A DNA stretch of 64,000 nucleotides from a virus (IMGVR_UViG_3300012943_000002:36718-100717); one strand, 5' to 3'; shown: positions 40,525 through 61,312, numbered from the stretch's first letter. Numbers and translations: made by a program. The notes: generated by a model not told the origin, from the sequence alone.

Positions 40525-40568
40525 TTTCTGTGTTTTTATTTACTTTGAATAATTGATTTAAAATAATA

Positions 40569-40596
40569 TAGAGGAGCAAATTGACTTACTCCTCTA
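40569..40596 (-). terminator. Hairpin, possible terminator
   Basis: tagaggag...ctcctcta inverted repeat followed on the minus strand by a T-rich run. Confidence 0.5.
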
Positions 40597-40616
40597 CATT
40601 TGAATAACTTTCTTAA

Positions 40617-42239: not shown

Positions 42240-44510
42240 TTAAAAATCTTCTAAAGGTAAAAACATATTTACTCCTCCTAGCATCCTTGTCTGTATATGC
42301 TGAGGACATTCTACATATCTAGCATCTGCTATATGTATACTTCTATACTTAGGATAATTCTTTACTTCCACTCCAAAATGCTTCAAGAGATTATACTTTT
42401 CATCATTAGGATTAAACATAGTTATTAATAAGGTACTTTCTTCTCCTAAGTTACCTGTATCTTTCACATCATCACTAGTAGGATATATAAATTCTCCTGC
42501 AAACTTTAGTCTTTCTACATTAACAATACCCCTATTACTGTGGCATATATTAATCATAGTAAATAAACATAGATTTCTCAGAATAGTAGAATATTCTAAC
42601 CACTTATCTATTTTCTGCTTCATAGTAAAGTTCCTTTCTTCTCCTACTTTACGAATATGATCTACAATTACGATAGTAAATAGCCTAGGATTATTTTCTT
42701 TATATCCTATTACTCTACTCTTCTTTGCTATCTTACCTGAATCATCTACAGCATCATAAGTTTCATGTACAAATTCTCCATTCTTTCTTGCATAAGCCAT
42801 TAAATGTTTATACATAACAGTAGGATTTTCTATCTGCTCTATATACTCTATCTTACCACTACTTATCTTTCTATTATTACTATCAAATTCTCCAAACATA
42901 GGTATTATTCTAGTAGTATAGATAATTTTAAGCATTTCTTCATGTTCTTTTGTTACCTGAATTATCTCAAAACTATCTACATCTATTCTATGTAGTAATT
43001 TTCCTTCTAAGTAATCCTGACACATTTCATATACCTTATCTTTATATGTAATAGTATAAACTCCAAAATCATGTGCCATAAAGAAAGCAGCTACTTTATA
43101 TTCCTTACTTACTCTATCTATCTCAAAAGAATAACATATCCAGTTAATATCATCTAACCTGTTTTCTTTTAACATTTGTAAATATGGAGATATAATATAA
43201 CAGAAATCTGCCATCGTAGTATTATGAGTAACTGTAAAATCTTCTAAATAAAACCTTCTATCTTCGTTCTCCAATGTAAATCCATAATAAATATCCACTT
43301 TGTCTTTAACTATAGTTAACTTACTATTATAATTCTTAATTAGGGACTTTGCTTTCTTTCTTTGAATCTTTACTGGAATCCTAGCTACATTCCCTTTAAT
43401 TCTTATCCTATAGACTTTGCATTTATAGTAACTACCGTCTTTCCTTTTCATACTAGCTATTTTGTCACTTATAATAGTATTAAATCCTAGACTATTAGCT
43501 AGTAATATAATATCAGTAGCTAGTTGTTTACTTTTTTGTGTAATTTCGTAAGAAGTAAGGTTGTGAATTAAATTACCATCACTATCTATAAGACCTGCTA
43601 ACAAACTTAACCTAATATCCTCACTATTATTAATATAATCTTTAGGTATATGTTTATTATACAATACTCCTACCTTTGATAATATACTAATAATAGGTAA
43701 ACTAGCTTGGAACCTCTCTACTCTATTTCCGTCTTTTTCATAAAAACCTTGCTTTACTATTGCTCTAGATAAATATTCTGGTAATACACCTATAACTTTT
43801 GCTATTTTACTTAAACTTTCATATTTAGTAGTAATGTTATTTACAGTTAGAGTACATTCTTTTCTAGATTTCAAGCTATATTCAATACTACCAGTACTTC
43901 TTAGTTTAAATATATATCCATTCTGAATACTATATTCATTTAACCATCTAATTACTTCCTCATCTGTAGTAGTTATACTGCCATCTGCTGAAGCTCCATC
44001 TCCTAACCATATACCTAAAAAATAAGGGTCTAATGGTACAGATACTTTCTGTTTAATAATAGCAGACTTATATCCGTAACTTTGTCTCGTTCTTTCCCTC
44101 CAAGGGAGGTTTAAAAAGTCTAATAGAGATATATTATGTACTTTATCTGTATTGCTTTTAATACTAAGTATATGAGATTCATTGACTCTATATGACATAG
44201 CTTTAGTTTGATTTACCCAATACATCATTTCCTCTCCTGTAGTAGTAGATATAACTTTATTTGGCTTTCCATCTAATCCTAGTAAAATATCTCCTACAAC
44301 TAACTCTTCGACTTTTTTTAGAGTCAGGTCATACATTACTACTTTAGTACCTAAACCTAAACATTTACCTACTTTCTGAGCAGCAACTAAACCTATACTA
44401 GTCTTCTTTTGGATTCCTCTGGTAGCCATATCTAAAGCTGTTATACCAGTAGTTAAACCAGCATTTCTACCTGCTTTACCTTCCTTAAATACTGTTATAA
44501 AATTACTCAT
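42240..44510 (-). CDS. dnaB: DnaB-like replicative helicase containing an intein
   Basis: AAQKVGK|intein|TT Walker A, YSFEI, IVIVDHI, HSNR, DVKDTG. Confidence 0.88.
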   Translation of the reverse strand: MSNFITVFKEGKAGRNAGLTTGITALDMATRGIQKKTSIGLVAAQKVGKCLGLGTKVVMYDLTLKKVEELVVGDILLGLDGKPNKVISTTTGEEMMYWVNQTKAMSYRVNESHILSIKSNTDKVHNISLLDFLNLPWRERTRQSYGYKSAIIKQKVSVPLDPYFLGIWLGDGASADGSITTTDEEVIRWLNEYSIQNGYIFKLRSTGSIEYSLKSRKECTLTVNNITTKYESLSKIAKVIGVLPEYLSRAIVKQGFYEKDGNRVERFQASLPIISILSKVGVLYNKHIPKDYINNSEDIRLSLLAGLIDSDGNLIHNLTSYEITQKSKQLATDIILLANSLGFNTIISDKIASMKRKDGSYYKCKVYRIRIKGNVARIPVKIQRKKAKSLIKNYNSKLTIVKDKVDIYYGFTLENEDRRFYLEDFTVTHNTTMADFCYIISPYLQMLKENRLDDINWICYSFEIDRVSKEYKVAAFFMAHDFGVYTITYKDKVYEMCQDYLEGKLLHRIDVDSFEIIQVTKEHEEMLKIIYTTRIIPMFGEFDSNNRKISSGKIEYIEQIENPTVMYKHLMAYARKNGEFVHETYDAVDDSGKIAKKSRVIGYKENNPRLFTIVIVDHIRKVGEERNFTMKQKIDKWLEYSTILRNLCLFTMINICHSNRGIVNVERLKFAGEFIYPTSDDVKDTGNLGEESTLLITMFNPNDEKYNLLKHFGVEVKNYPKYRSIHIADARYVECPQHIQTRMLGGVNMFLPLEDF
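43221..44363 (-). mobile_element. Intein (381 aa) with LAGLIDADG homing endonuclease
   Basis: Starts CLGLGTKV, ends YYGFTL...VTHN/T; LGIWLGDG and LAGLIDSDG motifs; inserted in Walker A after GK. Confidence 0.95.
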
Positions 44511-47315: not shown

Positions 47316-49328
47316 TTAATGTATTGCAGCATAGTTATTTCCAAACTCTGTACTTATGCCTAGTTTAATATTTAATTTTAATACTTCATTTACCTTATTA
47401 ATGGCATTAGTAAGTATCTGTTTAGTTTTCTCTTGTTCTGTCTTTAATATATCTCCTACATGCTCATCATGATATTGCATACATATTTTATATCCTTGTT
47501 CCCTACAATATTTAGTCCACATATCAAAACAGTATACTCCTGTACCCTGATTAAGAGTTGAAAATATATCTTTAAAATATCTTAGACTATAATAAAACTG
47601 GGAAACTGGATTATAAAGCCATATACTTTGTACCTTACCCATGAATTTCATTAGTGTATCTCCTTTTAATTTTAGTACATCTTCTCCTAAAAACTCTTTT
47701 ATCACTCCATTTCTAAATATGATCCTAACTATACTATTATTAGCTACTTCTTTTACAGCTTTATTTCTATCCCAATATGTTTTATGAAATAGATTACCCT
47801 CTTCAAGTGGAACATTAGCAGTAATAGCTATTTTTGGTCCACCTGCACCATATACAGCAGCAAAATTCGTCTTCTTAGCTTTAAGTCTAACACCTTTAAT
47901 CTTCTTATATTTTTCCCAATTTTCTGGACTAGTTGTTTCCTTATTAAGTTCTTTATAAAAAGTTACCTCTTCCTTAGTAAGTAGACCTGCTCTAACTGCT
48001 ATATCTAAATGAGGATCAAATCCTTCCTGCATCATTTCCTTTACATAAATAGGATCGTAGAAATACATATAATGTCTCTTAGTACTATCCTCTAAACCTG
48101 ACATATCTGAACCACATAATATATGGTCTTCATCTCTGGTTATTAGACACTCTCTAACCATCTCCCAATACTTCTTAGGTATACCAGCTAAATTAGCTAT
48201 AGGTTTCCTATGTTGCATTCTGAGAGTATTAGTCAGTCCATTAATCTCTGCTTTAAGAAAGTTATCACTATCTATAGACTCTAGAAATCCTTTTAGTGTA
48301 CTTATCCTACTTCTAATCAGGAATAGACTATCTAATTCTTCTAATCTAGGTTCTTTCTCAAACAAAGCTTTTACACTATCACATAATCCCTCATCATTAT
48401 CATCACTCTGTAGTTGTGGTACTTTTCTAGGTGGAGTATCTTTACTATAAGGAGTATTTTTATCTTTTACATACTTAAATGTAGTAGGTATCCATCCCAA
48501 TGAAAATAACCATTCTTTCAATTGAGGATGAGAGCCGGGATTACCCGGTTCTATTTTATCCACTAATTTTAAAGTACCATTATGATATTCTGGCAATCCC
48601 ATCTCTTTAAGCAACTTGAACCAATCCTCTCCCAACTTAGAGACAGAGCCGTCCTTCTTTAGCATAACTTTTGGTCTATCCTTTTTCTTATAAGTTATGT
48701 GCTTAGGCATTATAGCTGATAGCTTGACTATTTTCTCATCATATAAACCTGATAAAATTTTTAAGTTACTTTCACATTTATCCTTATCTAATTTCCACTT
48801 AACTTCTTCCTGCTCTCTTGCACAATCAAGTTTAAATGAAATATATCTAAGAAATCTATCTAAAGCATTGTTATCATTATATATTTTCTTTAAGTAGATA
48901 AGCTCTTCATCCCATAGTTTTACGTTTATTCTTACATCCTCACTACATCTAAATACATAATCTTCTACTGGTAAATTATGCCAATCATTAATAGGTGGTT
49001 TTTGTATACCAAATTCATATCCCCATTCATCTAAACCATGTACAAGTCTCTCAGGATATAGATACCAAGATACTCCTAAAGTATCTATTAGCCTAGCAGT
49101 TACTTTAATATTTAATATCTTTTCTATTACTGGAATATCATAAGTAACTATTTTATGCCCTATTAGTATATGTTCACCTAATAGGAAATCAATCATATCC
49201 TTATAGTTTATTAGCTTACCTTCCTTTATTAATACACCATTATCAAATTTTCTATAACATAAACAGTGTATTTTAGTAACTCCTTCTATTAAACCATCAG
49301 CTTCCAAATCAAATACACTATATATCAT
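47316..49328 (-). CDS. polA: Family A DNA polymerase with 3'-5' exonuclease (T7-like)
   Basis: FDLEAD, GH...YD; motif A GSDMSGLE, motif B RLKAKKTNFAAVYGAG, motif C YHDE. Confidence 0.95.
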   Translation of the reverse strand: MIYSVFDLEADGLIEGVTKIHCLCYRKFDNGVLIKEGKLINYKDMIDFLLGEHILIGHKIVTYDIPVIEKILNIKVTARLIDTLGVSWYLYPERLVHGLDEWGYEFGIQKPPINDWHNLPVEDYVFRCSEDVRINVKLWDEELIYLKKIYNDNNALDRFLRYISFKLDCAREQEEVKWKLDKDKCESNLKILSGLYDEKIVKLSAIMPKHITYKKKDRPKVMLKKDGSVSKLGEDWFKLLKEMGLPEYHNGTLKLVDKIEPGNPGSHPQLKEWLFSLGWIPTTFKYVKDKNTPYSKDTPPRKVPQLQSDDNDEGLCDSVKALFEKEPRLEELDSLFLIRSRISTLKGFLESIDSDNFLKAEINGLTNTLRMQHRKPIANLAGIPKKYWEMVRECLITRDEDHILCGSDMSGLEDSTKRHYMYFYDPIYVKEMMQEGFDPHLDIAVRAGLLTKEEVTFYKELNKETTSPENWEKYKKIKGVRLKAKKTNFAAVYGAGGPKIAITANVPLEEGNLFHKTYWDRNKAVKEVANNSIVRIIFRNGVIKEFLGEDVLKLKGDTLMKFMGKVQSIWLYNPVSQFYYSLRYFKDIFSTLNQGTGVYCFDMWTKYCREQGYKICMQYHDEHVGDILKTEQEKTKQILTNAINKVNEVLKLNIKLGISTEFGNNYAAIH

Positions 49329-49334
49329 ATCTTA

Positions 49335-49607
49335 TTATTTTAATCTAATTAATTTTCTATAAGTAGTTCTTTCTATAACTATCTTATCTTTGCTTACTAG
49401 ACTATTTAAAGCATATCCTATATGAGTTCTTACTTTTTTTACATTCTCTGGCTTTACAGCATATTTTTCTGTAAGAAAATCTTTCAGGGCTGCTGGAGTT
49501 ATATTCTTCTTGGTTTTAAGTATCTCTAATACTCTATCACTCCATGCTTCTTTTCTATTACCCTTATTAACTCTTGGTCCTCTACCTCTATTTAGTCCGT
49601 TTCTCAT
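49335..49607 (-). CDS. Small basic protein, winged-helix-like
   Basis: Lys/Arg-rich; helix pattern followed by a beta-hairpin. Confidence 0.5.
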   Translation of the reverse strand: MRNGLNRGRGPRVNKGNRKEAWSDRVLEILKTKKNITPAALKDFLTEKYAVKPENVKKVRTHIGYALNSLVSKDKIVIERTTYRKLIRLK

Positions 49608-50029
49608 ACTAATTCTACAGATTTAATAGGTTGCTGTTCTAATCTCCTAGTAATCTCTTCTATAGATATAGAATCTATTACTTCATCTGGTACATCTATC
49701 TCAAAAGATATAGGCTTTAGATTACTTCTAAGTCCAATAGTTGATCTATCAAACTTTGTTATAAAATCAGTAGCTTCAATAGGTATAGGGGTTATATACT
49801 CTCTACAATTTGGTGTACGAAATGTTATGTTATTTCTACCTATCCACACATTAGGTATTACATCCCATATAGCCATAGCTACAGCACAGTTAGACCCAAC
49901 TTCTTTATCTACTATATTCGTTGATATTTTAATTCTACTAAATCTGTTTTTGATCCCTTTAGGTGTTCCACAATATTTTGATCTTTCTATAATCTCCTTA
50001 GTTACATTAATTCTGATTTTTGTTTACAT
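49604..50029 (-). CDS. Hypothetical protein with TAA at codon 2 (possible pseudogene or base error)
   Basis: ATG TAA ACA AAA ATC AGA... continues in frame (TKIRINVTKEIIERSKYCG...NCAVAMAIWDV) into ORF 49604..49876. Confidence 0.65.
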
Positions 50030-50139
50030 AATTTTTAGTTTTAATTATTATTAAATATGGTACATCTACACTAAACCACAATACTTATAGAAATAAGTAT
50101 TATTACGAGAAAGCTATTAACAGTTACTGTAGATGTTTG

Positions 50140-50279
50140 TAGGGGGAAGTAGACTCGAACTACTGACCCTTTTATACTCAAATCTTTGCGATGTATGCTA
50201 CTTTTCTAGTCTTTTCACATGCCAAATTACCGGATTCATATTGTATAATAGTTGCTCTAGCCAACTGAGCTATCCCCCT
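50140..50279 (-). ncRNA. tRNA-like RNA (140 nt) with anticodon arm replaced by a long irregular hairpin
   Basis: Acceptor AGGGGGA/TCCCCCT, TA, D-arm GCTC-AGTTGGCTA-GAGC, T-arm AGTAG-TTCGAGT-CTACT. Confidence 0.8.
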
Positions 50280-50348
50280 ATAGAGTTCCCCTGTAGAGAA
50301 CAGGAGAACTTCCCTCAAAACTAACTGCTTAAAGAACAGAGTTTATAA

Positions 50349-50615
50349 TTATTTAAACATACTTCTTTCACATATTACTACCTTACCTACTATATCCTCA
50401 TAAGGTTTATACATAGAACTAGCTAATTTATTAATAGCTTTACCTTTTAACTTACCCTCTTCATCCATAATCATATATTTACCAGACTGTAAAGTAACTA
50501 CCTCTACCAGTTCACATTCTATTAACTTATATAATTCTGATAAACTAAAATCTGTACCATTCTTTGGTTCTATGATAGTATCTTTACCATCAACATCTAC
50601 TAATCTTGCTTTCAT
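50349..50615 (-). CDS. DUF3846-like protein
   Basis: LSELYKLIECELVEVV...MDEEGKLK...N..AS...DIVG.VV. Confidence 0.75.
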   Translation of the reverse strand: MKARLVDVDGKDTIIEPKNGTDFSLSELYKLIECELVEVVTLQSGKYMIMDEEGKLKGKAINKLASSMYKPYEDIVGKVVICERSMFK

Positions 50616-50980
50616 TACCTAAATTTAATTTTGATTTTAATTCTTATAGTAGTAAATTTCTTCTTTTTAACTTTCTTTTCTGTAGTTTTCTCCTCTTTAT
50701 ATTCATCTATTAAATCTGTCCAACAATCACAAATACCATTTGCAGTTTCTATTTTAAACATTACACTTTTACCCTTTTCTTTTTTAAAATCTATAGCTTC
50801 TATTACTTCTTTTAGTGCTAAGAGTATTCTATTACCTAATACAGGGCTATTTTTAATAATAGCTTCAAGACTATCTTCATATTCAAGAGGTAAGTGTATA
50901 TAATCATCACTTTGTACAACTATAGGTATATTAAATATATCATTCTCTTTTATAGCAAATGATTTTATCTTTACTTTCAT
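50615..50980 (-). CDS. Hypothetical protein
   Basis: ORF in operon. Confidence 0.55.
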   Translation of the reverse strand: MKVKIKSFAIKENDIFNIPIVVQSDDYIHLPLEYEDSLEAIIKNSPVLGNRILLALKEVIEAIDFKKEKGKSVMFKIETANGICDCWTDLIDEYKEEKTTEKKVKKKKFTTIRIKIKIKFR

Positions 50981-50982
50981 GA

Positions 50983-51294
50983 TTAGTTTAATTTATAAAT
51001 TGGTATTATTTGTATTGCTTGCTGTGGTGGTTCTCCCTCTTTGGCTGGTATTTCTACTATAGCATCTAAGATAGTAATAAATGTACTATTCTCTGGAACA
51101 GATTCATCTTTAGTGATAAATACATAAGTATGTCTTTGTGTAGAATTAAGAGTTAATTCAGGTACTTCAAAGAATGCATATATACCATCATGAAATATTT
51201 TCATATCTCTGTATATTGATCCTGTAGGTACATCTACTGGACATTTATTAGTATCTTCTGAGAAGTCTTTAACTTTAAATGATTTTATCTTCAT
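50983..51294 (-). CDS. Hypothetical protein, possibly a distant relative of 36917..37204
   Basis: Similar length and strand pattern. Confidence 0.55.
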   Translation of the reverse strand: MKIKSFKVKDFSEDTNKCPVDVPTGSIYRDMKIFHDGIYAFFEVPELTLNSTQRHTYVFITKDESVPENSTFITILDAIVEIPAKEGEPPQQAIQIIPIYKLN

Positions 51295-51303
51295 ATTTTA
51301 TTT

Positions 51304-52593
51304 CTATTTTACATTATTTAATATTACTAAATCAGAAGCTCGTGTAACTGCTGTATATAACATCTTCTGTCTTTCTACTAGGTCTTTATTAAATCCTATG
51401 TTTCCAATATTAATTATTGCTTCTTTATAAGTAGAACCTTGAGACTTATGAATAGTTATAGCATGATTGTATTTGATGTCAGCAAATTGGTCAATTAGTA
51501 AATCTCTACCTCTATAATCCCATCCATATTTTTTACAGTTTTCATTAATAGAAGATAGTACAATCTTATATACCTGTTCAGAACTTTCATGTACTATATT
51601 AATAGCATCATTTATTCTATAATATTTCATCTTGATTGTATCTACTCTACCCATTGGTCCATCATCAGTAAATCTAGTTTTCTCTGTTGGAATAGTAATA
51701 TCTGATGCTATAGTATCTAATTGCTCTACTTTTACTTCTTTGTTAGTATAAAATGATCCATAGGGAGAATTAAATACTATGGTTTCATCCTTTTCTATTT
51801 TCTTAGGATTACCGTATCTTTTTTGCCTCACTAATTGGTTAATAGAATCTACTACCATATTTGTATAAGCTAGATATTTTAAATCATCTGTGCCATTAAC
51901 CTCTGCTAAATCATTTATCATAGCTTCTCTATTGTCGCTATATATATAACCTTTACCATCTATAATACTTGGAGTCTTGAAATATATCATATCTAAATCT
52001 CTAGATAAATCTATAATAGGATTTCCTGCTCCTTGCCTTACTATTTGTGTAAGCCTTACTTCTGGATAGTCTTGTATAAATACTGGACTATTAGCTTCTC
52101 CTACTGGTGGTAATTGTTTATCATCACCTATATATATAATAGGAAATGGATAGTCATCTAAATATGCTTTAGGTACATTTTCATTACCTCCTACAAAGTC
52201 ACTATTAAGCATAGAGCATTCATCTATTACACATGCTTTAGCAAAACTGAAATCATTATTGGCTTTTTTTCCTTTTACAAAATATTTTTGTCCTGACTTA
52301 CCATTAGTTACTTTATACATTTTAAGGGCAGAATGGATCGTTTTAAAGTCAACAGGAGCATTTATTTTATTCTGTAAAATAGATAGAGCTTTATTAGTTG
52401 GAGCAGTTACATACACTTTACCATTATTAAAGTTGGGATTAATGGTCTTATCTCTACAAATATAACTTACTAATTCAGAGGCTAGCACAGTTTTTCCTAC
52501 ACCTGCACTACCTATTAGTCTTATTCTTCTGTGTCCAGCTTTGATTAATGCTATTATTTCATCAAATGCTCTTTGTTGATCTTCTAATAACAT
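51304..52593 (-). CDS. Dda/RecD-like SF1B helicase
   Basis: GSAGVGKT, APTNKA, TIHS, IDECSM, GDDKQLPPV, LTQIVRQ, TIHKSQGSTY, YTAVTRA. Confidence 0.93.
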   Translation of the reverse strand: MLLEDQQRAFDEIIALIKAGHRRIRLIGSAGVGKTVLASELVSYICRDKTINPNFNNGKVYVTAPTNKALSILQNKINAPVDFKTIHSALKMYKVTNGKSGQKYFVKGKKANNDFSFAKACVIDECSMLNSDFVGGNENVPKAYLDDYPFPIIYIGDDKQLPPVGEANSPVFIQDYPEVRLTQIVRQGAGNPIIDLSRDLDMIYFKTPSIIDGKGYIYSDNREAMINDLAEVNGTDDLKYLAYTNMVVDSINQLVRQKRYGNPKKIEKDETIVFNSPYGSFYTNKEVKVEQLDTIASDITIPTEKTRFTDDGPMGRVDTIKMKYYRINDAINIVHESSEQVYKIVLSSINENCKKYGWDYRGRDLLIDQFADIKYNHAITIHKSQGSTYKEAIINIGNIGFNKDLVERQKMLYTAVTRASDLVILNNVK

Positions 52594-52829
52594 TATAACT
52601 TGTTTAATATCTCACTAATATTTTTATTTGACTCATTTACTGAATCTAAACTACCTCTTAGATTATCACCTATTATAAAAATATACCTGTCTACTTCCCA
52701 CTTCAAGTCTTCTATTTTTCTTATCGTATCCTTTTCCAACCTTTTGATTCTCTTATTGTAGCTAAAAATATAAATTAAACAAATTATATTTATAACCAAA
52801 GATACTACAATTCCAATTGTAATTAACAT
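52593..52829 (-). CDS. Small membrane-anchored coiled-coil protein
   Basis: N-terminal TM helix. Confidence 0.55.
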   Translation of the reverse strand: MLITIGIVVSLVINIICLIYIFSYNKRIKRLEKDTIRKIEDLKWEVDRYIFIIGDNLRGSLDSVNESNKNISEILNKL

Positions 52830-52936
52830 TTTTTTCTTATTTTTATAGTTAAAAATAGTAATGTAAAGAAAAAAGTAAGCCCCATATAAATATGAAACTT
52901 ACTTTTCCTTACCTACTCAACCTTACCAATTCTACC

Positions 52937-53584
52937 TTATCCAATAGTTTGTCCCAATAATGCAGAAGCACCTTGCAATTCTAATGCAATCTCAGGTGAC
53001 AAATATACATCATTAACATCTCTTGCATCTACATCTGCATGTGGAGTTTTCCAATAGAAAGTTCTACGATATTGAGGATTACCATTAGCATCCTTAATTA
53101 TCTTATTTGCAGTACCCTCAGCGACAGTTTTGTTGTTTTCAGGAAAACGAACTACCTGTGCATTTGCATAATGGTCTTTATCTCTAAGTCCTTGGTTAAT
53201 TGCATACTGTTGATTTTCATCAATAATAGGAGAACTCTTTAGAACTCTGTAGATTGTACTACCATTTGTACTGTCAGCAGCTATACGAGCTACAATCTCA
53301 GCTTCTGACATGGTTTCTTTTACATCAACCCAAGCTACCCGGTTTTCTTCGCTTGTAAATTCACTTGCTTCAATTCCTGATTCTTCCGGTGTGAATAAAC
53401 TATTCTGCATATTGGATTCCAACTTAATAGTTGGATAAAATGACTTGGTTGTTACCTTCTGACGAAGTTCAACCCTCTTTGTACCTTTCTTCTGAAACTC
53501 TACTGTGGATATACCACTAAATGTTACAGCAGACTTAGATACTTCTTTTCTTACACCTGTTGGTGTAACAACGTTTGTGTCCAT
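52937..53584 (-). CDS. Hypothetical protein
   Basis: 215-aa ORF followed by a hairpin at ~52871-52906. Confidence 0.7.
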   Translation of the reverse strand: MDTNVVTPTGVRKEVSKSAVTFSGISTVEFQKKGTKRVELRQKVTTKSFYPTIKLESNMQNSLFTPEESGIEASEFTSEENRVAWVDVKETMSEAEIVARIAADSTNGSTIYRVLKSSPIIDENQQYAINQGLRDKDHYANAQVVRFPENNKTVAEGTANKIIKDANGNPQYRRTFYWKTPHADVDARDVNDVYLSPEIALELQGASALLGQTIG

Positions 53585-53636
53585 AATAATTGTTCTTTTT
53601 TAACTGTTTGAAATAAATGTTTAAATTATAATTTAG

Positions 53637-53720
53637 AATAGCATAGTGGACTCGAACCACTTCCTTTAGAGTACTAGCGCTATTGTTGACTCTAATGCTC
53701 TACTAATGAGCTAATGCTAT
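53637..53720 (-). ncRNA. tRNA-like RNA (84 nt) with enlarged, non-canonical anticodon arm
   Basis: Acceptor ATAGCAT/ATGCTAT, TA, D-arm GCTC-ATTAGTA-GAGC, 7-bp stem TTAGAGT/ACTCTAA closing 16 nt, T-arm AGTGG-TTCGAGT-CCACT. Confidence 0.8.
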
Positions 53721-53793
53721 ATAAAAACAGCCAATTTCGTAGCACATTCAAAAACTACTAGTTGGCTGTTGTTGTTATTAATCACTACTATTT

Positions 53794-54027
53794 TTAATAA
53801 AGGATACTACCGTCTATATCCTCTTCTTGCTTCACTTCTACTTGTGTTCCTCCTTTTATATCAGCTAATGCATTCAAATCATACATTGCTATAAATACTG
53901 CATCTGGAGTGGTATCTGTTAACCATTTACCATAAGCAGCTACTATATCTTTAGCAGTATAATTCTTACCTTTACTCATGTGATCTTTTTCATGCTCTTT
54001 AAAGACTATGTGATAAACTCTTTTCAT
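53794..54027 (-). CDS. Hypothetical protein
   Basis: ORF. Confidence 0.6.
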   Translation of the reverse strand: MKRVYHIVFKEHEKDHMSKGKNYTAKDIVAAYGKWLTDTTPDAVFIAMYDLNALADIKGGTQVEVKQEEDIDGSILY

Positions 54028-54163
54028 GTTTAAGCTGTTTAAAACTCTTAATATTGATAGTAAATGTTGTATTTACTACTTCTTTTTTAAGAGTATGAAG
54101 AATAATTTTTTCATTTGGAGTCTTTACTAATATCCTATTGATATTCTTGTCTGGTTGTGTCAT
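53999..54163 (-). CDS. Small ORF absent from the track (54 aa, MTQPDKNINR...)
   Basis: Fills the gap between two genes; A-rich leader. Confidence 0.45.
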   Translation of the reverse strand: MTQPDKNINRILVKTPNEKIILHTLKKEVVNTTFTINIKSFKQLKHEKSLSHSL

Positions 54164-54184
54164 ATTTTTAATAATTTTTAGTGA

Positions 54185-55270
54185 TTAATCTTTTACTATA
54201 TAATCTGTATTAACAATTATATCATTAACTGACACACTAGCTTTATTTAATTGGCTTAGTATATCTATATTACTCCAATGCGTTAACTTAGCTTTTACAC
54301 TGTCTCTACTTATTTCCAAATAACCTTTAGCTCTCCAAGGTGCTATATGAGTTCTACCATCTGATGCTGGTATAGTTCTATAATATAAAGTAGTATTAAA
54401 TATACTACTTGGTGCTCCCGGAATTGGTGGTACAAATGAAATACCTATGTATTTATCTGCTGGTGCTGCTCTACCTTCCAATACATATCTAGCTTTAGCT
54501 CCTCCTAAATAATCAGCTAACTTAATAACATTACTCTCTATAGTATCATCTGGATACAATCTAGAATATGTATTTAAGTAATGAGTTATTTGTTCAGAAG
54601 GTATATCTCCTTGCCAGTCTATAGATTCTAATTTTCTTTTAGACTCTGTAGATAATGGAGCATTATAATCTAACATTCTTGTGCTTATTACTGGTAATAA
54701 TACATTTGAATATCTTTTAGATAAACTAAAATACTCATTAGTATCCATTAATATACTTTCTCTAATTGGTGTAATAAAGCTATCTCCTCTAAATGTTTCT
54801 ACTAATGTAGCAAAATCAGCAGAGTATTTATTTATACTTTTTATGTTTACTGTAGGACTATTGCCTCTATATAACCAATAAGCTCCTGTGTCCTCTATTC
54901 TAATATGAACAAGAATACCTTTAGGATAATATACTTTAACACAACTATCTAATCTTAATAATTGATGTATTGCTGATAATTCAGCAGTATCAACTAGTTC
55001 AGTTGCAATAGTTTTTCTACCTCCCCATGCTGTTAATATAGGAATAGGAATATTTTTATCAATACTATCACTAATTACTTTCCTTATCTCTACTAGATTT
55101 TCAATCTCTGGAACAGAACCTAATCTTATATTCTTATCACCTACCAGTATAGTAGTGAGAATATTTAATAGGTTCTTGTCACTTGGAGTAATAACCTTAT
55201 TAAATGTAGATGATAAATAATTTTCAATGACACTTTCATAAGGATCATCGTTTAATACTTTGATTTTCAT
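54185..55270 (-). CDS. PvcA/DIT1 (isocyanide-synthase)-like protein
   Basis: PIPILTAWGGRK...VDTAELSAI..L..L...V...YPKGI.VHI..ED and late APW, matching the PvcA/DIT1 motif order. Confidence 0.55.
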   Translation of the reverse strand: MKIKVLNDDPYESVIENYLSSTFNKVITPSDKNLLNILTTILVGDKNIRLGSVPEIENLVEIRKVISDSIDKNIPIPILTAWGGRKTIATELVDTAELSAIHQLLRLDSCVKVYYPKGILVHIRIEDTGAYWLYRGNSPTVNIKSINKYSADFATLVETFRGDSFITPIRESILMDTNEYFSLSKRYSNVLLPVISTRMLDYNAPLSTESKRKLESIDWQGDIPSEQITHYLNTYSRLYPDDTIESNVIKLADYLGGAKARYVLEGRAAPADKYIGISFVPPIPGAPSSIFNTTLYYRTIPASDGRTHIAPWRAKGYLEISRDSVKAKLTHWSNIDILSQLNKASVSVNDIIVNTDYIVKD

Positions 55271-55289
55271 TTTGAATATTTTAATTTAT

Positions 55290-55547
55290 TTAAAATTCTT
55301 TTTCTTCTATTCCAGAGATGAATGGTATTAGTCCTACACCATGTAAGCTAAATCCAAATGCTTCTTGTACTACCTCTATAACTGTTACATCTATAAGATG
55401 TATTTCAGCTATTATAGTACCTATTAGTATTAAGCATACGCCTATAGCTTTTCTGTGTACATTGGTGTGATGGCTACCTACCAAATGATGAGCTAGATAT
55501 TTAGATATATCTAAATCACGTAGAATGATTAATTTTAACCTTTTCAT
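55290..55547 (-). CDS. Small His-rich membrane protein
   Basis: HHLVGSHHTNVHR followed by two hydrophobic segments. Confidence 0.6.
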   Translation of the reverse strand: MKRLKLIILRDLDISKYLAHHLVGSHHTNVHRKAIGVCLILIGTIIAEIHLIDVTVIEVVQEAFGFSLHGVGLIPFISGIEEKEF

Positions 55548-55868
55548 TTTGAATGTTTTTAATGTTGATAATAGTGATTAATCTATGGTTTTTACATCGG
55601 TAGCATACTCATCCTATCTGTAAACGGACTTTGTGTGTAACAATCTACCAATGTCATCAAATCTAACTTAAATCTAACTGTGCTATTAAGCACTGCATGG
55701 TTAAGTTTGTAGTCTTTGAAACTACTAGATTAGAAATTTTTAGAATAATATAGTAGAGTAGTTGCGTTATGCAAAACCTTATCATTATCACTAGTAGATA
55801 ATACCTGTGTCTAATCAAGGCAACTACTCTAACTATATTATCAGAGCCAATTGTCTCTGCTTCTTTAA

Positions 55869-56033
55869 TTATTTTATAGACTGTACATTATAGTAAGTAG
55901 TATCAGTATCAACTACTGTTACTAATCTAACTTGTATAATCTTATTTTCTTGATTTGGTTTTACTTGTTCTTTAGTACAACTGATAGCTATAACTATAAG
56001 AACTAATAGTAGTAAATAAAATATCTTTTTCAT
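55869..56033 (-). CDS. Small lipoprotein
   Basis: MKKIFYLLLLVLIVIAISC lipobox; start overlaps the upstream stop. Confidence 0.65.
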   Translation of the reverse strand: MKKIFYLLLLVLIVIAISCTKEQVKPNQENKIIQVRLVTVVDTDTTYYNVQSIK

Positions 56034-56566
56034 TGTATACTTATTGATTTGATAAAATGTTGTTTCAGTCCTACTACTGTAGGCACATCTAGCTTTATTA
56101 ACTTCCATCCATTATCAGATAAATATTGAAGATAAAAAGAAGTATTATTACCCGGTGTACTATTATATGCATCAAATGATACTTGTAGTTGATCTCCTAT
56201 TTTTTTAAACACAATATCTGATACTATAATTGGTAATGTACCACAATAAGTAACTAAATGTACCCAACAATCACATTTACTACCATTAACTTGAGCTTCT
56301 ATAAATTTAGCATCTGGAAGCATGTGAATAACTTTCTGTTCATGTTTATCTAATGATAAACTAGTCTCTACAGTTCCATGTATTGTTACCGTTACAGAAT
56401 AATTATTAAGATTTTTGATGGTTGTTACATTATGGTCAATCTCCAACTTTATATTATCTGTTGTTGATGAACCTGTCTCAATTGTTGGTTGCATTTGTGC
56501 GTGTACGCTACTACCTATAAGCATTATAAATAGTATAAGTAGAAATATGATAATAAACTGTTTCAT
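56030..56566 (-). CDS. Exported beta-rich protein with a Bacteroidota 'LPV/LPI' Ig-like module
   Basis: Signal peptide ending VHA-Q; GTLPIIVSD...LQVSF...NNTSFYLQY..DNGWK. Confidence 0.6.
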   Translation of the reverse strand: MKQFIIIFLLILFIMLIGSSVHAQMQPTIETGSSTTDNIKLEIDHNVTTIKNLNNYSVTVTIHGTVETSLSLDKHEQKVIHMLPDAKFIEAQVNGSKCDCWVHLVTYCGTLPIIVSDIVFKKIGDQLQVSFDAYNSTPGNNTSFYLQYLSDNGWKLIKLDVPTVVGLKQHFIKSISIQ

Positions 56567-56601
56567 AAATGTTTTGTTTTTAATTTTTAGTGATTATTTT
56601 T

Positions 56602-56847
56602 AATATCCCTCTGCACTCAATTGTAATAGCTGCCTCCCAGACATTTTTAACTGCTGTAGTCATCGCAGTTCACTATTACAACTGCTCACCCTTGGGAGCT
56701 GATTCCATAGTTTTCTCGATGCTTGTTTCCAAGTCCTAATACTTCCTATATCAATCAGGTAGTTTCACATCTTATCGAGGTAAGGCTACTACGCCTACTT
56801 GTACCTTAAAGATGCTTATGCTACGTGAGTTATGGTGCATTGCTATT
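56602..56847 (-). ncRNA. Twister-ribozyme-like RNA (P1-type with P5) interrupted by a 126-nt insert
   Basis: CAA-TGCA-CC-ATAA-CTCAC-[insert]-CTCCC-AA-GG-GTGAG-P5-TGCA-GAGGG reproduces P2, T2, P4 and T1 of twister. Confidence 0.65.
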
Positions 56848-56999
56848 TTTCAATGTGTACTTCCTTTACAGGTTTTCTACATCTGGAAACTCGTCATATA
56901 AATCAACGTTTATAATCTTCAAGTCTATCCAAGTAATTTCTGAGAAAATTACCTTACTGTTTATATGCTCCCTCAGTCATATTTATCAGTATTAGCTAA

Positions 57000-57392
57000 C
57001 TAGTTTAATATTTGTTCTAACATACTATCAGTTACCTTCTTTTCAGCTATGCCTTCTTTCATAACTCTTTCTACCATAGGTAACACTAATGTGTACTCTT
57101 CTAAATTGTCACACATTGCTGCTATCTCTTTGTAAAGATTGAGAGGATTTCTGAAATATTTAGGGTCTTTACCTCCAAATGCTTCTTTCAACTCTTCTTT
57201 TTGTTGTTCAGTTCCTTCTTCTCCTATTGTATCAACTATCATAGATACTAGAGGATGAGCACGAGAAGCAAATGTAGCTGTAGCTTCTGCTGCTTGTTTT
57301 ATTAAGCTAAGTGCTCTTTCACTGGCTATACCTAGTCCTGCTCCCATTTTTCCATTTTCTGGAGTAATGTCTAAATTGATTTTAAGTTCCAT
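57000..57392 (-). CDS. Hypothetical protein, paralog of 45011..45328
   Basis: Likely start MELKINL at 57392; CDNLEEYT motif. Confidence 0.65.
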   Translation of the reverse strand: MELKINLDITPENGKMGAGLGIASERALSLIKQAAEATATFASRAHPLVSMIVDTIGEEGTEQQKEELKEAFGGKDPKYFRNPLNLYKEIAAMCDNLEEYTLVLPMVERVMKEGIAEKKVTDSMLEQILN

Positions 57393-57646
57393 TTTAATTT
57401 GTTTTAAGTGATTAATAATATATTTTAGCACCTACAGCATTACTTGTGCTTGGGAACTTAATCCACTACACTATATGCTAACTAATCTGTTTAGGTCTAG
57501 CTGAGAACTCATTCGTATTAATAGCTTCTGTCAATTAGCTACTGACCCAGTTCTTTCTCAAGGGACTAATACGTATAGGATTTCGCCTATTATCTTTATT
57601 CAGATATTGCTTCTGAAAAGGTATTTAATGTTTAACCTTTAAGTTT

Positions 57647-57862
57647 TTATAATTCAGTATCATTCCAATTTTCTAGTCTACTATCAAATTGAGCTTGAGA
57701 CATTAAATGTCTCTCTTCAAATAGATCATCATCAAATAACTCTACTTTTTCATCAAATAGATCATCTAATGGATCATGAACTTTTGAATGTGTAGGATTA
57801 CCTGTGAATAATGATGTAGATTTTCTGTTCTCTGTGCATGTTGTTAGATTGTACTTTAACAT
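57647..57862 (-). CDS. Small acidic protein
   Basis: Likely start MLKYNL; DDLFDE / DDDLFEE repeats. Confidence 0.5.
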   Translation of the reverse strand: MLKYNLTTCTENRKSTSLFTGNPTHSKVHDPLDDLFDEKVELFDDDLFEERHLMSQAQFDSRLENWNDTEL

Positions 57863-58034
57863 AGTGATTAATTTATGATGAATAATTAGGTTGAATAAGA
57901 AAAACATTTGGTCAGGGGCTTATCATATCTTGAGTAGTAGTTCAAGAGAAGGTTTATCAGCTATAGCCTCTACTACAGTAAGTTTATTTAACTGAATATC
58001 TCCTTATCAGGCTTTACCAAATGTTTAAGTTTAA

Positions 58035-58772
58035 TTACTTTTCAGGATAATGTTTATCAAACCAATCCTTATAATTCTGTATTACTTTACCTTGTTGGTC
58101 TAGTTTTAAACAGTCTAGTGCATAATCAGCAGCAGCTTTCATCATTTCATCTCTTGTATACATCTTTTCTATCTTTACAGATTCAGGAACTGGAGTAATA
58201 ATTACTGAACCATTACTATCATGAATTAGTTCTGTCTTTATAATAATACCTACATTATAATACTTATACCCTTCTGGACTCTCCATTAACCTCCTACTTC
58301 CTGCTGTTTTTGTTTCTCCATATTCAAGCATTACTTCTTTAATAACATTACCTTTATTATAAGATAATGTATAATCATAAGCAAATTTATCTGATATATT
58401 AAGGGCGAACTTCTTATCATCTGCATAGAAATCTTCTATTGTTCCTTTATTTAATAATTCAGGGTTATCAGAAGCTACTATCTTTCTAAAGAACTCAAGA
58501 GTACCATAAGGATAAGCTACTTCTGTTATTAAATTATGAGTCTTATATACAGTATCACAATGGTATTTACCTACTCTTTGAGTTGCTACCTCAAGGATAT
58601 TATCCCCCTCTTTTATTTCATCATATGTAGTAATATACAAATACTGATAAGTGCAATCTTCATATAAATGTCGTTTACTGGCTTTATAAGGATATAATCT
58701 ACCATTTGTATGCTTTACTATATAACTTACTTTATTAGTAGGTAACATATGTACTTGTGCTATCTTTTTCAT
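58035..58772 (-). CDS. Conserved phage hypothetical protein
   Basis: VHMLPT, QYLYIT..DEIKEGD, RKIVAS, KMYTRDEM pattern. Confidence 0.7.
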   Translation of the reverse strand: MKKIAQVHMLPTNKVSYIVKHTNGRLYPYKASKRHLYEDCTYQYLYITTYDEIKEGDNILEVATQRVGKYHCDTVYKTHNLITEVAYPYGTLEFFRKIVASDNPELLNKGTIEDFYADDKKFALNISDKFAYDYTLSYNKGNVIKEVMLEYGETKTAGSRRLMESPEGYKYYNVGIIIKTELIHDSNGSVIITPVPESVKIEKMYTRDEMMKAAADYALDCLKLDQQGKVIQNYKDWFDKHYPEK

Positions 58773-58796
58773 ATTGAATGTTTTTGTAGTGATTTG

Positions 58797-59066
58797 TTAT
58801 TCTATTATCTTTACTATTCTATTTGCTATATCTATCTCCACTTGTGAATAGATTACAGTACTTGAAGTAATAAATTGTCTTACATTATGTGATTTTAATT
58901 CACTCTTTATAGCTTCTAATACTTTATCTCTTAACAAATGTCTTCTTTTTATCTTTCTTTTCTCAAGATATGTTTGTATCATAGATGATATAGTCAAAGC
59001 GAGTATACTTAGTGTTATTCCTATAAGTATTCCCGCTGCTGCTGCATTATTACAATTTGTTAACAT
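58797..59066 (-). CDS. Small membrane-anchored protein
   Basis: N-terminal TM helix followed by a basic stretch. Confidence 0.55.
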   Translation of the reverse strand: MLTNCNNAAAAGILIGITLSILALTISSMIQTYLEKRKIKRRHLLRDKVLEAIKSELKSHNVRQFITSSTVIYSQVEIDIANRIVKIIE

Positions 59067-59076
59067 GGTTTAGGTT

Positions 59077-59241
59077 TTAATGTAGTAAATAAAATAGATA
59101 ACTCCATAATACTATAGCAATTATTAACACTAAATATACAAGATTAGTAGCTTCTGCTTTGTTAATCATAGCATTTACATTAGTTATTATTACTATCCAT
59201 GTAAATAATAATGCTAGTCCAAATACAATTGTTGGTAACAT
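59077..59241 (-). CDS. Two-TM microprotein absent from the track (54 aa)
   Basis: MLPTIVFGLALLFTWIVII...LVYLVLIIAIVLWSYLFYLLH. Confidence 0.6.
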   Translation of the reverse strand: MLPTIVFGLALLFTWIVIITNVNAMINKAEATNLVYLVLIIAIVLWSYLFYLLH

Positions 59242-59565
59242 AATGAATTGATTTAAGTGTAATGATTAATACAATGATATTTATTTCTAAGTCAATAAGG
59301 GCTACTTGTATGACTTAATAATCTTGGCAATAATTAGTTGGGGCTGTGAGGGGAGTAGGGGAATAACAGGTACTAACCTGTAAGGTATCAGTACATCTTG
59401 ATGAATGTTGTCATAATGTTCTGTCATTTTGAATGTTTGAAGTATGAAATTTGTCTCTTATTAAGAGGTAAAAAAATGAACCCTTGCTGGTAGCGGCTTT
59501 CAGCCAATTCTTGTGTTATTAAATAACTATTTTCTCAAATAATAGTTATCTGGTAACTATTTTTG

Positions 59566-59573
59566 TACCTTTG
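59566..59573 (+). promoter_or_regulatory. Bacteroidota -7 promoter element, probable leaderless transcript
   Basis: TACCTTTG ends 4 nt before the ATG at 59578. Confidence 0.6.
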
Positions 59574-59577
59574 AGGT

Positions 59578-60129
59578 ATGAAAAAACGATCTCCAACCTA
59601 TAATGAATTGGTCTTTTCTATCCATAAATTGAGAGAACAAGCTATTGATAATAACATATATAGTAATACAATTACTAGCTCTGGATATGAGAGAATTAAG
59701 ACTGGTAATGTAACTAGTAGAATACCTCAACCTATTGTTATATCAGTGCATGATCTACATAGACAATCTACTTTGTATGAATGGGATTTAATAGGTATTA
59801 TATCTGATGAGTTGAAGGAGTATAACTGTTTATGGTATTGTACTCCTGAACTTAAAAAGAAAAATACATATAGAAGTGCAATAGCTGGTCTTATTGGTAG
59901 AAATATATTAACTAAGACTGAGACTACAAATATATATTTAGTCAATCCTCTTTATATTAGAAGAGGTGATATATTTGGTGTACTATCAACTACTGCTAAC
60001 ATGTTAGAGGATGAAGTAAAAGTAGGTGTAGAACATATAACTAATAAGAGACCAATTAAAAGTTATAGCACTATAAATACTATACCTACTATAGAGTATG
60101 GTTATACACCTGATGATATAATATCATAG
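59578..60129 (+). CDS. RepL-like winged-helix DNA-binding protein
   Basis: TYRSAIAGLIGRNIL.K....IYLVNPLYIRRGD motif typical of plasmid RepL-like proteins. Confidence 0.6.
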   Translation: MKKRSPTYNELVFSIHKLREQAIDNNIYSNTITSSGYERIKTGNVTSRIPQPIVISVHDLHRQSTLYEWDLIGIISDELKEYNCLWYCTPELKKKNTYRSAIAGLIGRNILTKTETTNIYLVNPLYIRRGDIFGVLSTTANMLEDEVKVGVEHITNKRPIKSYSTINTIPTIEYGYTPDDIIS

Positions 60130-60298
60130 GTAAATATAGATATATCTAGTACTGACTATAAGAATATAAGGTTACTTTCACCCTTACTTAGAAATAGTTA
60201 TTTTTCCTAATGCCTTGTGAAACTCGGCTGTACCTATCCATTTAGTCATATTGCATATTCTTAATCAGTACTAGATATATTTATACTTTTGATGGTAA

Positions 60299-60646
60299 TT
60301 AAATGTCTGTTATTTGATTAGTTATTTCTATATCACCATTGTATACTTTATAACCATATCTAATTGCTTCATAAACTGCTTTACCTCTTGTTTCACAACT
60401 ACCAACAAGCCCTTGATTTAAACCAGAGTTATCACTATAAGGACTTTGTATTCTCCTAAAGTTATAAGTCTCTCTATCTTTGCTGTCTGTATCAGATACC
60501 ATTACATAGACAGTGTCTCTTATGGCATGTCTGTTGTTCTCAGCTTTGAGCATTTCTAATGTCTTAATGGCTTTGAAGTCGTTGTCGCGTATTAGGTCTT
60601 CACTTGTATTAATACGAAATAGTTTGTTGTTTCTTAATAGTAACAT
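60299..60646 (-). CDS. Hypothetical early protein
   Basis: ORF with AAACATTCAATC-ATG leader. Confidence 0.6.
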   Translation of the reverse strand: MLLLRNNKLFRINTSEDLIRDNDFKAIKTLEMLKAENNRHAIRDTVYVMVSDTDSKDRETYNFRRIQSPYSDNSGLNQGLVGSCETRGKAVYEAIRYGYKVYNGDIEITNQITDI

Positions 60647-61195: not shown

Positions 61196-61312
61196 TTGAA
61201 TGTGATTTAGTGATTAATGAATATGACAATATTGTCAAACATTAGTAAGGGCTGTGAGGGTAGTATTGACTATGAGATAAACACAACCATATTAATAGTT
61301 GTGTTTATTGAG

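Follow-up and report, generated by a model that had tools for sequence, protein, structure and literature searches.

The stretch of DNA analysed here, called the window below, makes up the last 64 kb of an IMG/VR virus record of 100,717 bp, which is complete and carries direct terminal repeats (IMGVR_UViG_3300012943_000002:36718-100717; G+C content ~30%). Our subject is the region at 50085-60285, in which small genes alternate with long gaps that hold structured RNA elements. Two of these gaps contain full-length members of conserved RNA families that are missing from Rfam, named families A and B here, and two tRNA-shaped sequences lie in the same region; these RNAs are present, conserved and base-paired. 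We consider it probable, with some reserve, that this early, fast-evolving part of the phage genome doubles as an RNA-gene island, where small genes alternate with noncoding RNA genes. Minus-strand genes run from 20 to ~62 kb and encode ribonucleotide reductase, thymidylate synthase, primase, an rIIA-like protein, an intein-bearing protein, and an SNF2-type helicase. A family A DNA polymerase gene (PolA, 47316-49328, minus strand) adjoins the island, and a Dda-like helicase gene (51304-52593, minus strand) is among the replication genes alongside it. The closest cultured kin are phages of Flavobacterium psychrophilum (88-92 kb, ~40% protein identity), so the host is likely a member of the Bacteroidota. 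Megablast and blastn searches of GenBank phages for close relatives gave no match. Protein-guided scans of IMG/VR and JGI metagenomes returned only relatives with ~60% identical helicases, and no nucleotide conservation of the gaps was found in these.

Accepted genes cover 77% of positions 50001-60000, compared with 20-50 kb, where open reading frames (ORFs) abut almost everywhere. The looser packing described in an earlier sequence-only reading of this DNA is therefore real, as is the alternation of small genes with RNA elements that it described, with four elements now supported by more than folding energy. Every gap carries many TAA, TAG, and TGA stops in all six frames, so recoding opens none of them, and translated comparison with relatives (tblastx) revealed no protein remnants in any gap. 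Together, the stops in all frames and codes and the absence of a tblastx signal exclude pseudogenes or recoded ORFs. No hidden small genes with the local stereotyped start-site leader were found within the gaps, nor were iterons or tandem repeats that would point to a replication origin, nor any convincing additional tRNA-like T arm. Folding energy was expressed as a z score against dinucleotide shuffles, with 24 coding windows as controls (mean z -0.45, standard deviation 0.85, minimum -2.8). Four whole gaps are clear outliers relative to these controls: 52830-52936 (z -4.8), 55548-55868 (z -5.05), 56567-56999 (z -3.6), and 60130-60298 (z -5.7 and -4.3 on the two strands). The claim that the region holds at least five folds besides the tRNA shapes and the twister-like RNA consequently stands in part, as the gaps at 57432-57646 and 57908-58034 do not have unusual folding energy. 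Beyond the tRNA shapes and families A and B, three gaps contain unusually stable hairpins, either terminator-like or long and double-stranded, and one gap shows nothing. Structured gaps also occur beyond the island (40525-40616, z -5.0). Folding energy is a poor guide here because the element best supported by covariation, at 57421-57640, is not an outlier.

That element is the family A RNA (57421-57640, minus strand, 220 nt). It comprises a AGGUUAAACAUUGAAUACCU hairpin, four more helices, a pseudoknot (UGAGAA/UUCUCA), and a 3' GGUGCUAAA block. The gap gave weak collinear blastn and nhmmer matches in three distant relatives, and its exact 18-mer GGTTAAACATTRAATACC was found at 83 IMG/VR loci representing 73 distinct stretches. 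Most of the 73 carry the downstream conserved blocks, and the 3' block is present in 59 of them. Among bacterial and archaeal genomes totalling 596 Gb, the 18-mer occurred 11 times, 10 times by chance and once in a true member, on a contig of a Sphingobacteriales metagenome-assembled genome. The consensus begins with the hairpin AGGU-UAAACAUUGAAU-ACCU, followed by a helix closing a variable insert, UAAAGAUAC, and a short hairpin. A 7-bp helix around UUCC-CUUGAGAAA-GGAA with a variable hairpin comes next, then AAUGAGUUCUCAGC, an optional helix, and a terminal helix that ends in the 3' block. Among 31 aligned sequences, 93.3% of cells are paired, and both partners vary in 28 of the 44 pairs; none of 500 shuffles reached the observed values, and slid controls paired at 40-53%. 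The pseudoknot joins the loop UGAGAA to UUCUCA, with one compensatory change (UGAAAA/UUUUCA in L070, a related phage locus). A covariance model built without the window recovered its single copy at 113.9 bits (E 4e-29), while no Rfam 15 family matched either this copy or a typical member. Family A is thus a conserved, pseudoknotted phage RNA family without an Rfam match. In several loci, seven among the matches listed, a tRNA ends 3-8 nt upstream of it, and in at least eight a transfer-messenger RNA (tmRNA) follows it, in locus L104 from the very next base.

The second family occupies the 433-nt gap at 56567-56999, from which Rfam searches exclude a tmRNA or degenerate tmRNA. Family B (56601-56843, minus strand) contains AAUGCAC, CUCAC, two extra helices, CUCCCAAGGGUGAG, the P5 helix, and GUGCAGAGGG; a further 156 nt (56844-56999) lie upstream of it in the same gap. 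Scanning IMG/VR with the 17-mer AGCTCCCAAGGGTGAGC identified 35 viral loci, 34 of them with long conserved flanks. The unit measures 217-395 nt across members and 235 nt in the window (56841-56607). Its 5' half reads, in order, a U-rich stretch, AAUGCAC, C, AUnA, CUCAC, helix Pa (absent in L144), UGAAAC, and helix Pb, and its 3' half reads CU-CCC-AAGG, GUGAG, helix P5, A, GUGCA, GAGGG, and RUAA. A profile built without the window, in this case a hidden Markov model rather than a covariance model, matched the window copy over its full length (E 2e-33). For the gaps that hold families A and B, the core observation of the sequence-only reading was therefore understated: both contain conserved RNA families lacking in Rfam. 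Literature searches, by sequence as well as by topic, turned up no account of either one. Individual family B members vary further: L153 and L170 carry a T-arm-like GGGTTCAATTCCCA within the variable part of helix Pb, and the member at L167:219-511 has an extra hairpin between GAGU and UGCAGAGGG.

Family B is the twister-like RNA that had been proposed for this gap; its kinship with the twister ribozyme is a separate question. The 34 loci keep twister-type blocks in order (AA-P2, P4, CCCAAGG by P4', P5, and P2'-GAGGG), with one or two extra helices inserted in L4. This agrees with what we take to be the order in the rice twister (N^AA, P2, P4, L4 CCCAAG, P4', P5, P2', GAGGG, P1'). The predicted cut site, 56842/56841, corresponds to the junction of tandem family B units, for example in L154 (GAGGGAU|AAUGCACC), and partial-plus-full copies were found in seven loci. 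However, no Rfam model, twister included, matched positions 56560-57010 (451 nt) at E ≤ 10, and the twister models likewise did not match a minimal member, L144:2340-2600. P5 and Pb covary, while covariation is silent on P2, P4, and T1 because these are nearly invariant in this closely related sample. P2 offers one compensatory pair (UGCAU/AUGCA in L162) and one mismatch (L166). The proposal therefore stands as far as a real, conserved family with twister-type blocks is concerned, and its assignment to any existing twister model does not. Since P2, P4, and T1 are invariant, the P2 evidence is mixed, and L144 goes unrecognised, kinship with the twister ribozyme is a lead only, and we would put its chances at somewhat over one in three at best.

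Two tRNA mimics had also been proposed, and both are indeed tRNA scaffolds. In tRNA-like RNA 1 (50139-50279, minus strand), the acceptor stem, D arm, and T arm are intact and the anticodon is replaced by ~66 nt, such that ~85 nt lie between the D and T arms in place of an arm with a 7-nt loop. It was not detected by standard ARAGORN or at Rfam thresholds, and it has weak full-length similarity to a comparable element of phage L007. The second, tRNA-like RNA 2 (53637-53720, minus strand), is a full cloverleaf with a 7-bp anticodon stem and a 16-nt loop that contains the palindrome UAGCGCUA. It scores 51.1 bits against the Rfam tRNA model (RF00005, cut-off 29), with 20 nt where 7 are expected, and is the only tRNA found by Rfam in the region; standard ARAGORN found nothing at this position. 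Both shapes are directly preceded by a strong hairpin. The first is flanked by a 10-bp hairpin immediately 5' (50285-50309, minus strand; fold 50279-50345, z -3.2) and a nested hairpin immediately 3' (50062-50136, minus strand; fold 50040-50140, z -3.4, 0 of 200 shuffles as stable). The second has a terminator-like hairpin with UUUUU directly on its 5' side (53723-53769, minus strand, with 53728-53769 before the UUUUU; z -2.9). As encoded, neither scaffold has the 5-bp stem, 7-nt loop, U33, and purine 37 of a functional decoder, and a canonical anticodon loop appears only after 13 or 66 nt are removed. The tRNA-shaped RNAs look as if they were selected for shape rather than decoding.

The same inserts can be read in another way, in which the scaffolds are working tRNA-Thr(AGU) genes with introns, similar to the "enigmatic introns" in the tRNAs of Lak megaphages, and would yield a Thr tRNA once an enzyme of unknown kind has spliced them. 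When introns are allowed, ARAGORN calls Thr(AGU) for both, with a 66-nt insert in the first scaffold and a 13-nt insert in the second. In each case the insert can be placed between positions 33 and 34, and each insert starts with a CAA-type sequence. This shared anticodon and insert placement keep the intron reading alive. Additionally, the anticodon of scaffold 1 pairs with the start of its insert, as in intron-bearing pre-tRNAs, and in L096 a Thr(AGU) call with a 42-nt insert lies 3 nt before a family A RNA. There is also a precedent in the Lak phages of Prevotella, which have tRNAs with ~90-nt inserts (PMC6784885). However, a group I intron would not fit into 13 or 66 nt, and the intron mode of ARAGORN is permissive. 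Once spliced, scaffold 1 would carry one base too many behind the D arm, and its anticodon stem would contain an A-A mismatch. We know of no protein-dependent tRNA splicing pathway in bacteria, and no splicing enzyme was identified among the neighbouring genes. The tRNA shapes of relatives, with tetraloop anticodon arms or no D arm, cannot decode at all. On this evidence, intron-bearing tRNA genes are possible but rather unlikely.

The comparison with relatives places these RNAs in a wider setting. A conserved gene for a 215-aa protein (52937-53584, minus strand) marks the region in 29 further IMG/VR phages, and relatives of the protein found in Logan and at NCBI are 65-68% identical. No PDB entry matched it by fold or sequence (the AlphaFold model is confident, with a pLDDT of 83.5). 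The protein is kept across at least 60 phage clusters, often adjoining RNA genes. Near its gene, relatives carry tmRNA genes, canonical tRNAs, or aberrant tRNA shapes. For example, three tRNA shapes of L021 (7068-7133, 7947-8021, and 8409-8472) close their anticodon arm with a tetraloop or with a loop of 3-4 nt, and L003 has two shapes lacking a D arm (1205-1262 and 1688-1745) with a common 9-bp acceptor stem. What sets the two L003 copies apart is compensatory change in the T stem and in the hairpin. Paralogous tRNA shapes within one phage share their acceptor-stem sequence and show compensatory changes in the other arms. Many phages also have a AGUCAGGUGGCGGAAUUGGUAGACGC...ACAGGUUCGAAUCCUGUCCUGACUAC scaffold around a variable centre of 30-170 nt. 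These scaffolds were seen in L050, L059, L072, L078, L096, L113, and others, where they often abut family A or B RNAs, and ARAGORN gives them differing identities "with introns".

Rfam identified a tmRNA beside the 215-aa gene in four of these phages (54-76 bits; L022:8812-9199, L030:2478-2906, L034:9187-9594, and L044:7885-8238). With L104:7054-7375, L116:6064-6414, and L124:3330-3735, seven phage tmRNAs were noted (54-82 bits); their tags end in AA, and they adjoin either the 215-aa gene or a family A RNA. A separate related locus, L047, contains a group I intron (13633-13859, Rfam 76.9 bits). The sequence-only reading had called for comparison of this region across related phages, and in these tmRNA, tRNA, and anticodon-less tRNA-like genes recur in the same early region. 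As these genes lie near the 215-aa gene in relatives, the early region of this phage group is a recurrent home for translation-related RNA genes, in which protein genes turn over.

The island has further hairpins. A hairpin of 18-22 bp followed by a U-rich run lies at 52869-52908 (minus strand, z -6.0) and was picked up by a terminator scan. Together with 53728-53769, it has the form of an intrinsic terminator, a GC-containing hairpin with an immediate U run, and both are putative terminators. At 55744-55842 (minus strand), a 99-nt hairpin with a ~21-bp stem (z -4.97, 0 of 200 shuffles as stable) is possibly a double-stranded RNA and an RNase III-type substrate. Between convergent genes, an imperfect inverted repeat with 27-nt arms (60130-60298) would fold into ~37 bp. 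An RNase III processing site calls for ~20 bp or more of near-continuous double-stranded RNA, and the predicted stems of ~21 and ~37 bp make the last two elements candidates.

A promoter-like motif, TTAATCAYT, stands 0-25 nt before eight start codons, those at 54163, 55547, 56566, 57392, 57861, 59241, 60646, and 61195. By position, the boxes at 54180-54188, 55573-55581, 56589-56596, 57407-57415, 57863-57871, 59261-59269, and 61209-61217, and the one upstream of the ATG at 60646, are promoter-like. Seven of the 12 matches to TAATCACT in the window are on the minus strand at 54-61.3 kb, within 7 kb, each with a start codon 0-25 nt downstream, and the TTAATCAYT boxes often precede a ACATTCAAA-ATG leader. 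The ORF starts called at 57431 and 57907 are probably wrong, with 57392 and 57861 fitting better. At 57861, the ATG directly follows the box, which suggests a leaderless mRNA for that gene. Six motifs of the CTCACAGCCC type also lie on the minus strand, at 59341, 61249, 61432, 61707, 62011, and 62277, and nowhere else on this strand; half of them are inside a 49-nt repeat that contains TTGCCAAnATT. These motifs at 59.3-62.3 kb may be early promoters.

The boxes bear directly on the proposal that the whole island is one long early transcript, in which a twister would cut at 56842/56841, RNase P and RNase Z would act on the tRNA shapes, and RNase III would cleave the long hairpins, so that noncoding RNAs and mRNAs are released, putatively for host takeover or anti-defence. 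Eight genes with their own TTAATCAYT box and two hairpin-plus-U-run sites inside the region count against this, and therefore several short transcription units are favoured over a single long early transcript. Other evidence suits the model better: the twister-type blocks in twister order across the 34 family B loci, the compensatory P2 change in L162, the head-to-tail units abutting at the predicted cut site in L154, the stems of ~21 and ~37 bp, and, in other phages, the tRNA shapes that lie directly against families A and B. According to a review, twister and hammerhead ribozymes of bacteria are located close to phage genes, where they may process polycistronic RNAs (PMC6765202). The ribozyme step would nonetheless have to accommodate the missing Rfam twister matches for both the window and L144 and the silence of covariation on P2, P4, and T1. 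To our knowledge, no described twister has a stem inside L4, where family B has two extra helices. The single-transcript model is thus plausible in parts, and as a whole we regard it as doubtful.

A further possibility, that most of the long gaps are inert, being decayed genes or spacer in a fast-evolving region with hairpins that are merely terminators, draws on the finding that only 5-6 of the ~25 island genes are common to relatives whose core genes are 50-60% identical, on the gap elements that lack homologs, and on the structured gaps elsewhere in the window, but we judge it improbable, given that no gap has detectable protein remnants and that two gaps hold, at full length, members of RNA families kept between phages whose proteins share only 33-40% identity. 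For 56601-56843 and 57421-57640, membership in conserved RNA families refutes it.

The island reading accounts for these observations as follows. The small genes, of which most have a promoter-like TTAATCAYT box and a stereotyped leader to themselves, would alternate with RNA genes like those of phage tRNA islands. Four such RNA genes would be present: the two tRNA shapes with a longer arm in place of the anticodon loop, the 220-nt family A RNA, and the 235-nt family B RNA. The other strong hairpins would be transcript ends or double-stranded sites for processing or stabilisation. The RNAs would be transcribed as stable species, tRNA-processing enzymes would release them by way of the tRNA shapes, and they would act on translation or on tRNA-directed host defence. 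Several points weigh against this account. We infer the transcription and processing of these elements as discrete RNAs from their sequences, and the promoter role of TTAATCAYT is argued from position and enrichment. For five structured gap elements, ~2 Mb of phage loci yielded no homolog; these are the hairpin at 55.7 kb with its neighbours, the stretch 57862-58034, the inverted repeat at 60.2 kb, and the hairpins on either side of tRNA-like RNA 1. The window copy of family A is not flanked by a tRNA or tmRNA, and a search of the whole 100.7-kb genome for tmRNA (RF00023) gave no match at E ≤ 1. Moreover, both tRNA scaffolds read as tRNA-Thr(AGU) once the insert is removed, and they may therefore be real intron-bearing tRNAs instead of mimics.

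A more specific proposal can be built on the RNA-gene island, and we offer it tentatively, with more doubt than confidence. Families A and B would be two undescribed classes of phage RNA. Family B would be an expanded twister with helices in L4; by cutting between C56842 and A56841, it would reduce precursors, either tandem or linked to tRNAs, to single units. Family A would be a pseudoknotted RNA of tRNA and tmRNA islands that is released by tRNA-processing enzymes and acts on translation or tRNA-directed defence, and the anticodon-less tRNA shapes would be processing handles or decoys.

Additional features of the window were noted around these elements. A 756-aa protein (42240-44510, minus strand) has Hint and LAGLIDADG homing-endonuclease domains and is thus an intein inside a host protein, phrog_15558, which has no named family. 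Two ATG-TAA start-stop pairs (50024-50029 and 49998-50007, minus strand) precede the gene at 49604-49876, and the frame from the first TAA stays open into that gene. A single plus-strand gene (59578-60129; 183 aa, no family match) lies amid the minus-strand genes and is bordered on one side by the inverted repeat with 27-nt arms; it may be an inserted cassette.

Large RNAs such as GOLLD and ROOL, whose function is unknown, are an established feature of phage tRNA islands. What is new here is a pair of compact, widespread RNA families of Bacteroidota-type phages that are missing from Rfam 15, together with a recurring class of tRNA-shaped RNAs incapable of decoding. The covariation in family A suffices to define a testable structure, and with family B it can be asked, concretely and cheaply, whether a twister fold can accept large insertions within its catalytic loop. 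Should the tRNA shapes be processing handles, or decoys for tRNA-targeting defences, islands of translation-related RNA would be linked to host takeover.

The tRNA- and tmRNA-adjacent context of ROOL and GOLLD has been described (bioRxiv 10.1101/2024.12.08.627333). Families A and B resemble them in being phage-borne, highly structured, pseudoknotted, and without a known function, and family A adjoins tRNA or tmRNA genes in many loci. They differ in size, at ~220-480 and 217-395 nt compared with ~580 and >800 nt, and in their apparent hosts, which are Bacteroidota and not Firmicutes or Actinobacteria. The Rfam GOLLD and ROOL models did not match, either at the gathering threshold or with hits up to E ≤ 10 admitted. 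Family B shows twister-type blocks in order, an AA before a 5-bp P2, a P4, CCCAAGG beside the 3' strand of P4, and a P5, and the 3' strand of its P2 is followed immediately by GAGGG and then a short AU-rich P1. Like twisters, it occurs in phages, sometimes in tandem. It departs from them in its two extra helices in L4, one of them optional, its minimal P1, and the absence of an Rfam hit.

For the tRNA shapes, the closest parallel is with Lak phages, which also have Bacteroidota hosts and phage tRNA genes with unexplained anticodon-loop inserts; their genomes have large expressed intergenic regions (PMC6784885). The Lak inserts are ~90 nt long and sit at the canonical position 37/38 (by tRNAscan), while those in the window are 13 and 66 nt and lie 5' of the anticodon; relatives of the window phage also have plainly non-decoding versions. 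The tRNA-miRNA units of MHV68 and the stable RNAs of the T4 tRNA cluster use a tRNA shape as a processing handle beside small structured RNAs, a role that the tRNA shapes of the island may share. Those systems involve other hosts and enzymes and have no sequence relation to the island. Small early genes separated by stem-loops are also familiar from the RNase III sites of the T7 early region and the promoter-early/stem-loop cassettes of T4. The island has the same plan of stem-loop-separated small genes, here each after a stereotyped promoter-like box in a hyperplastic region, but its gaps are far longer, at up to 433 nt, and what two of them contain is a conserved RNA gene, not a simple hairpin.

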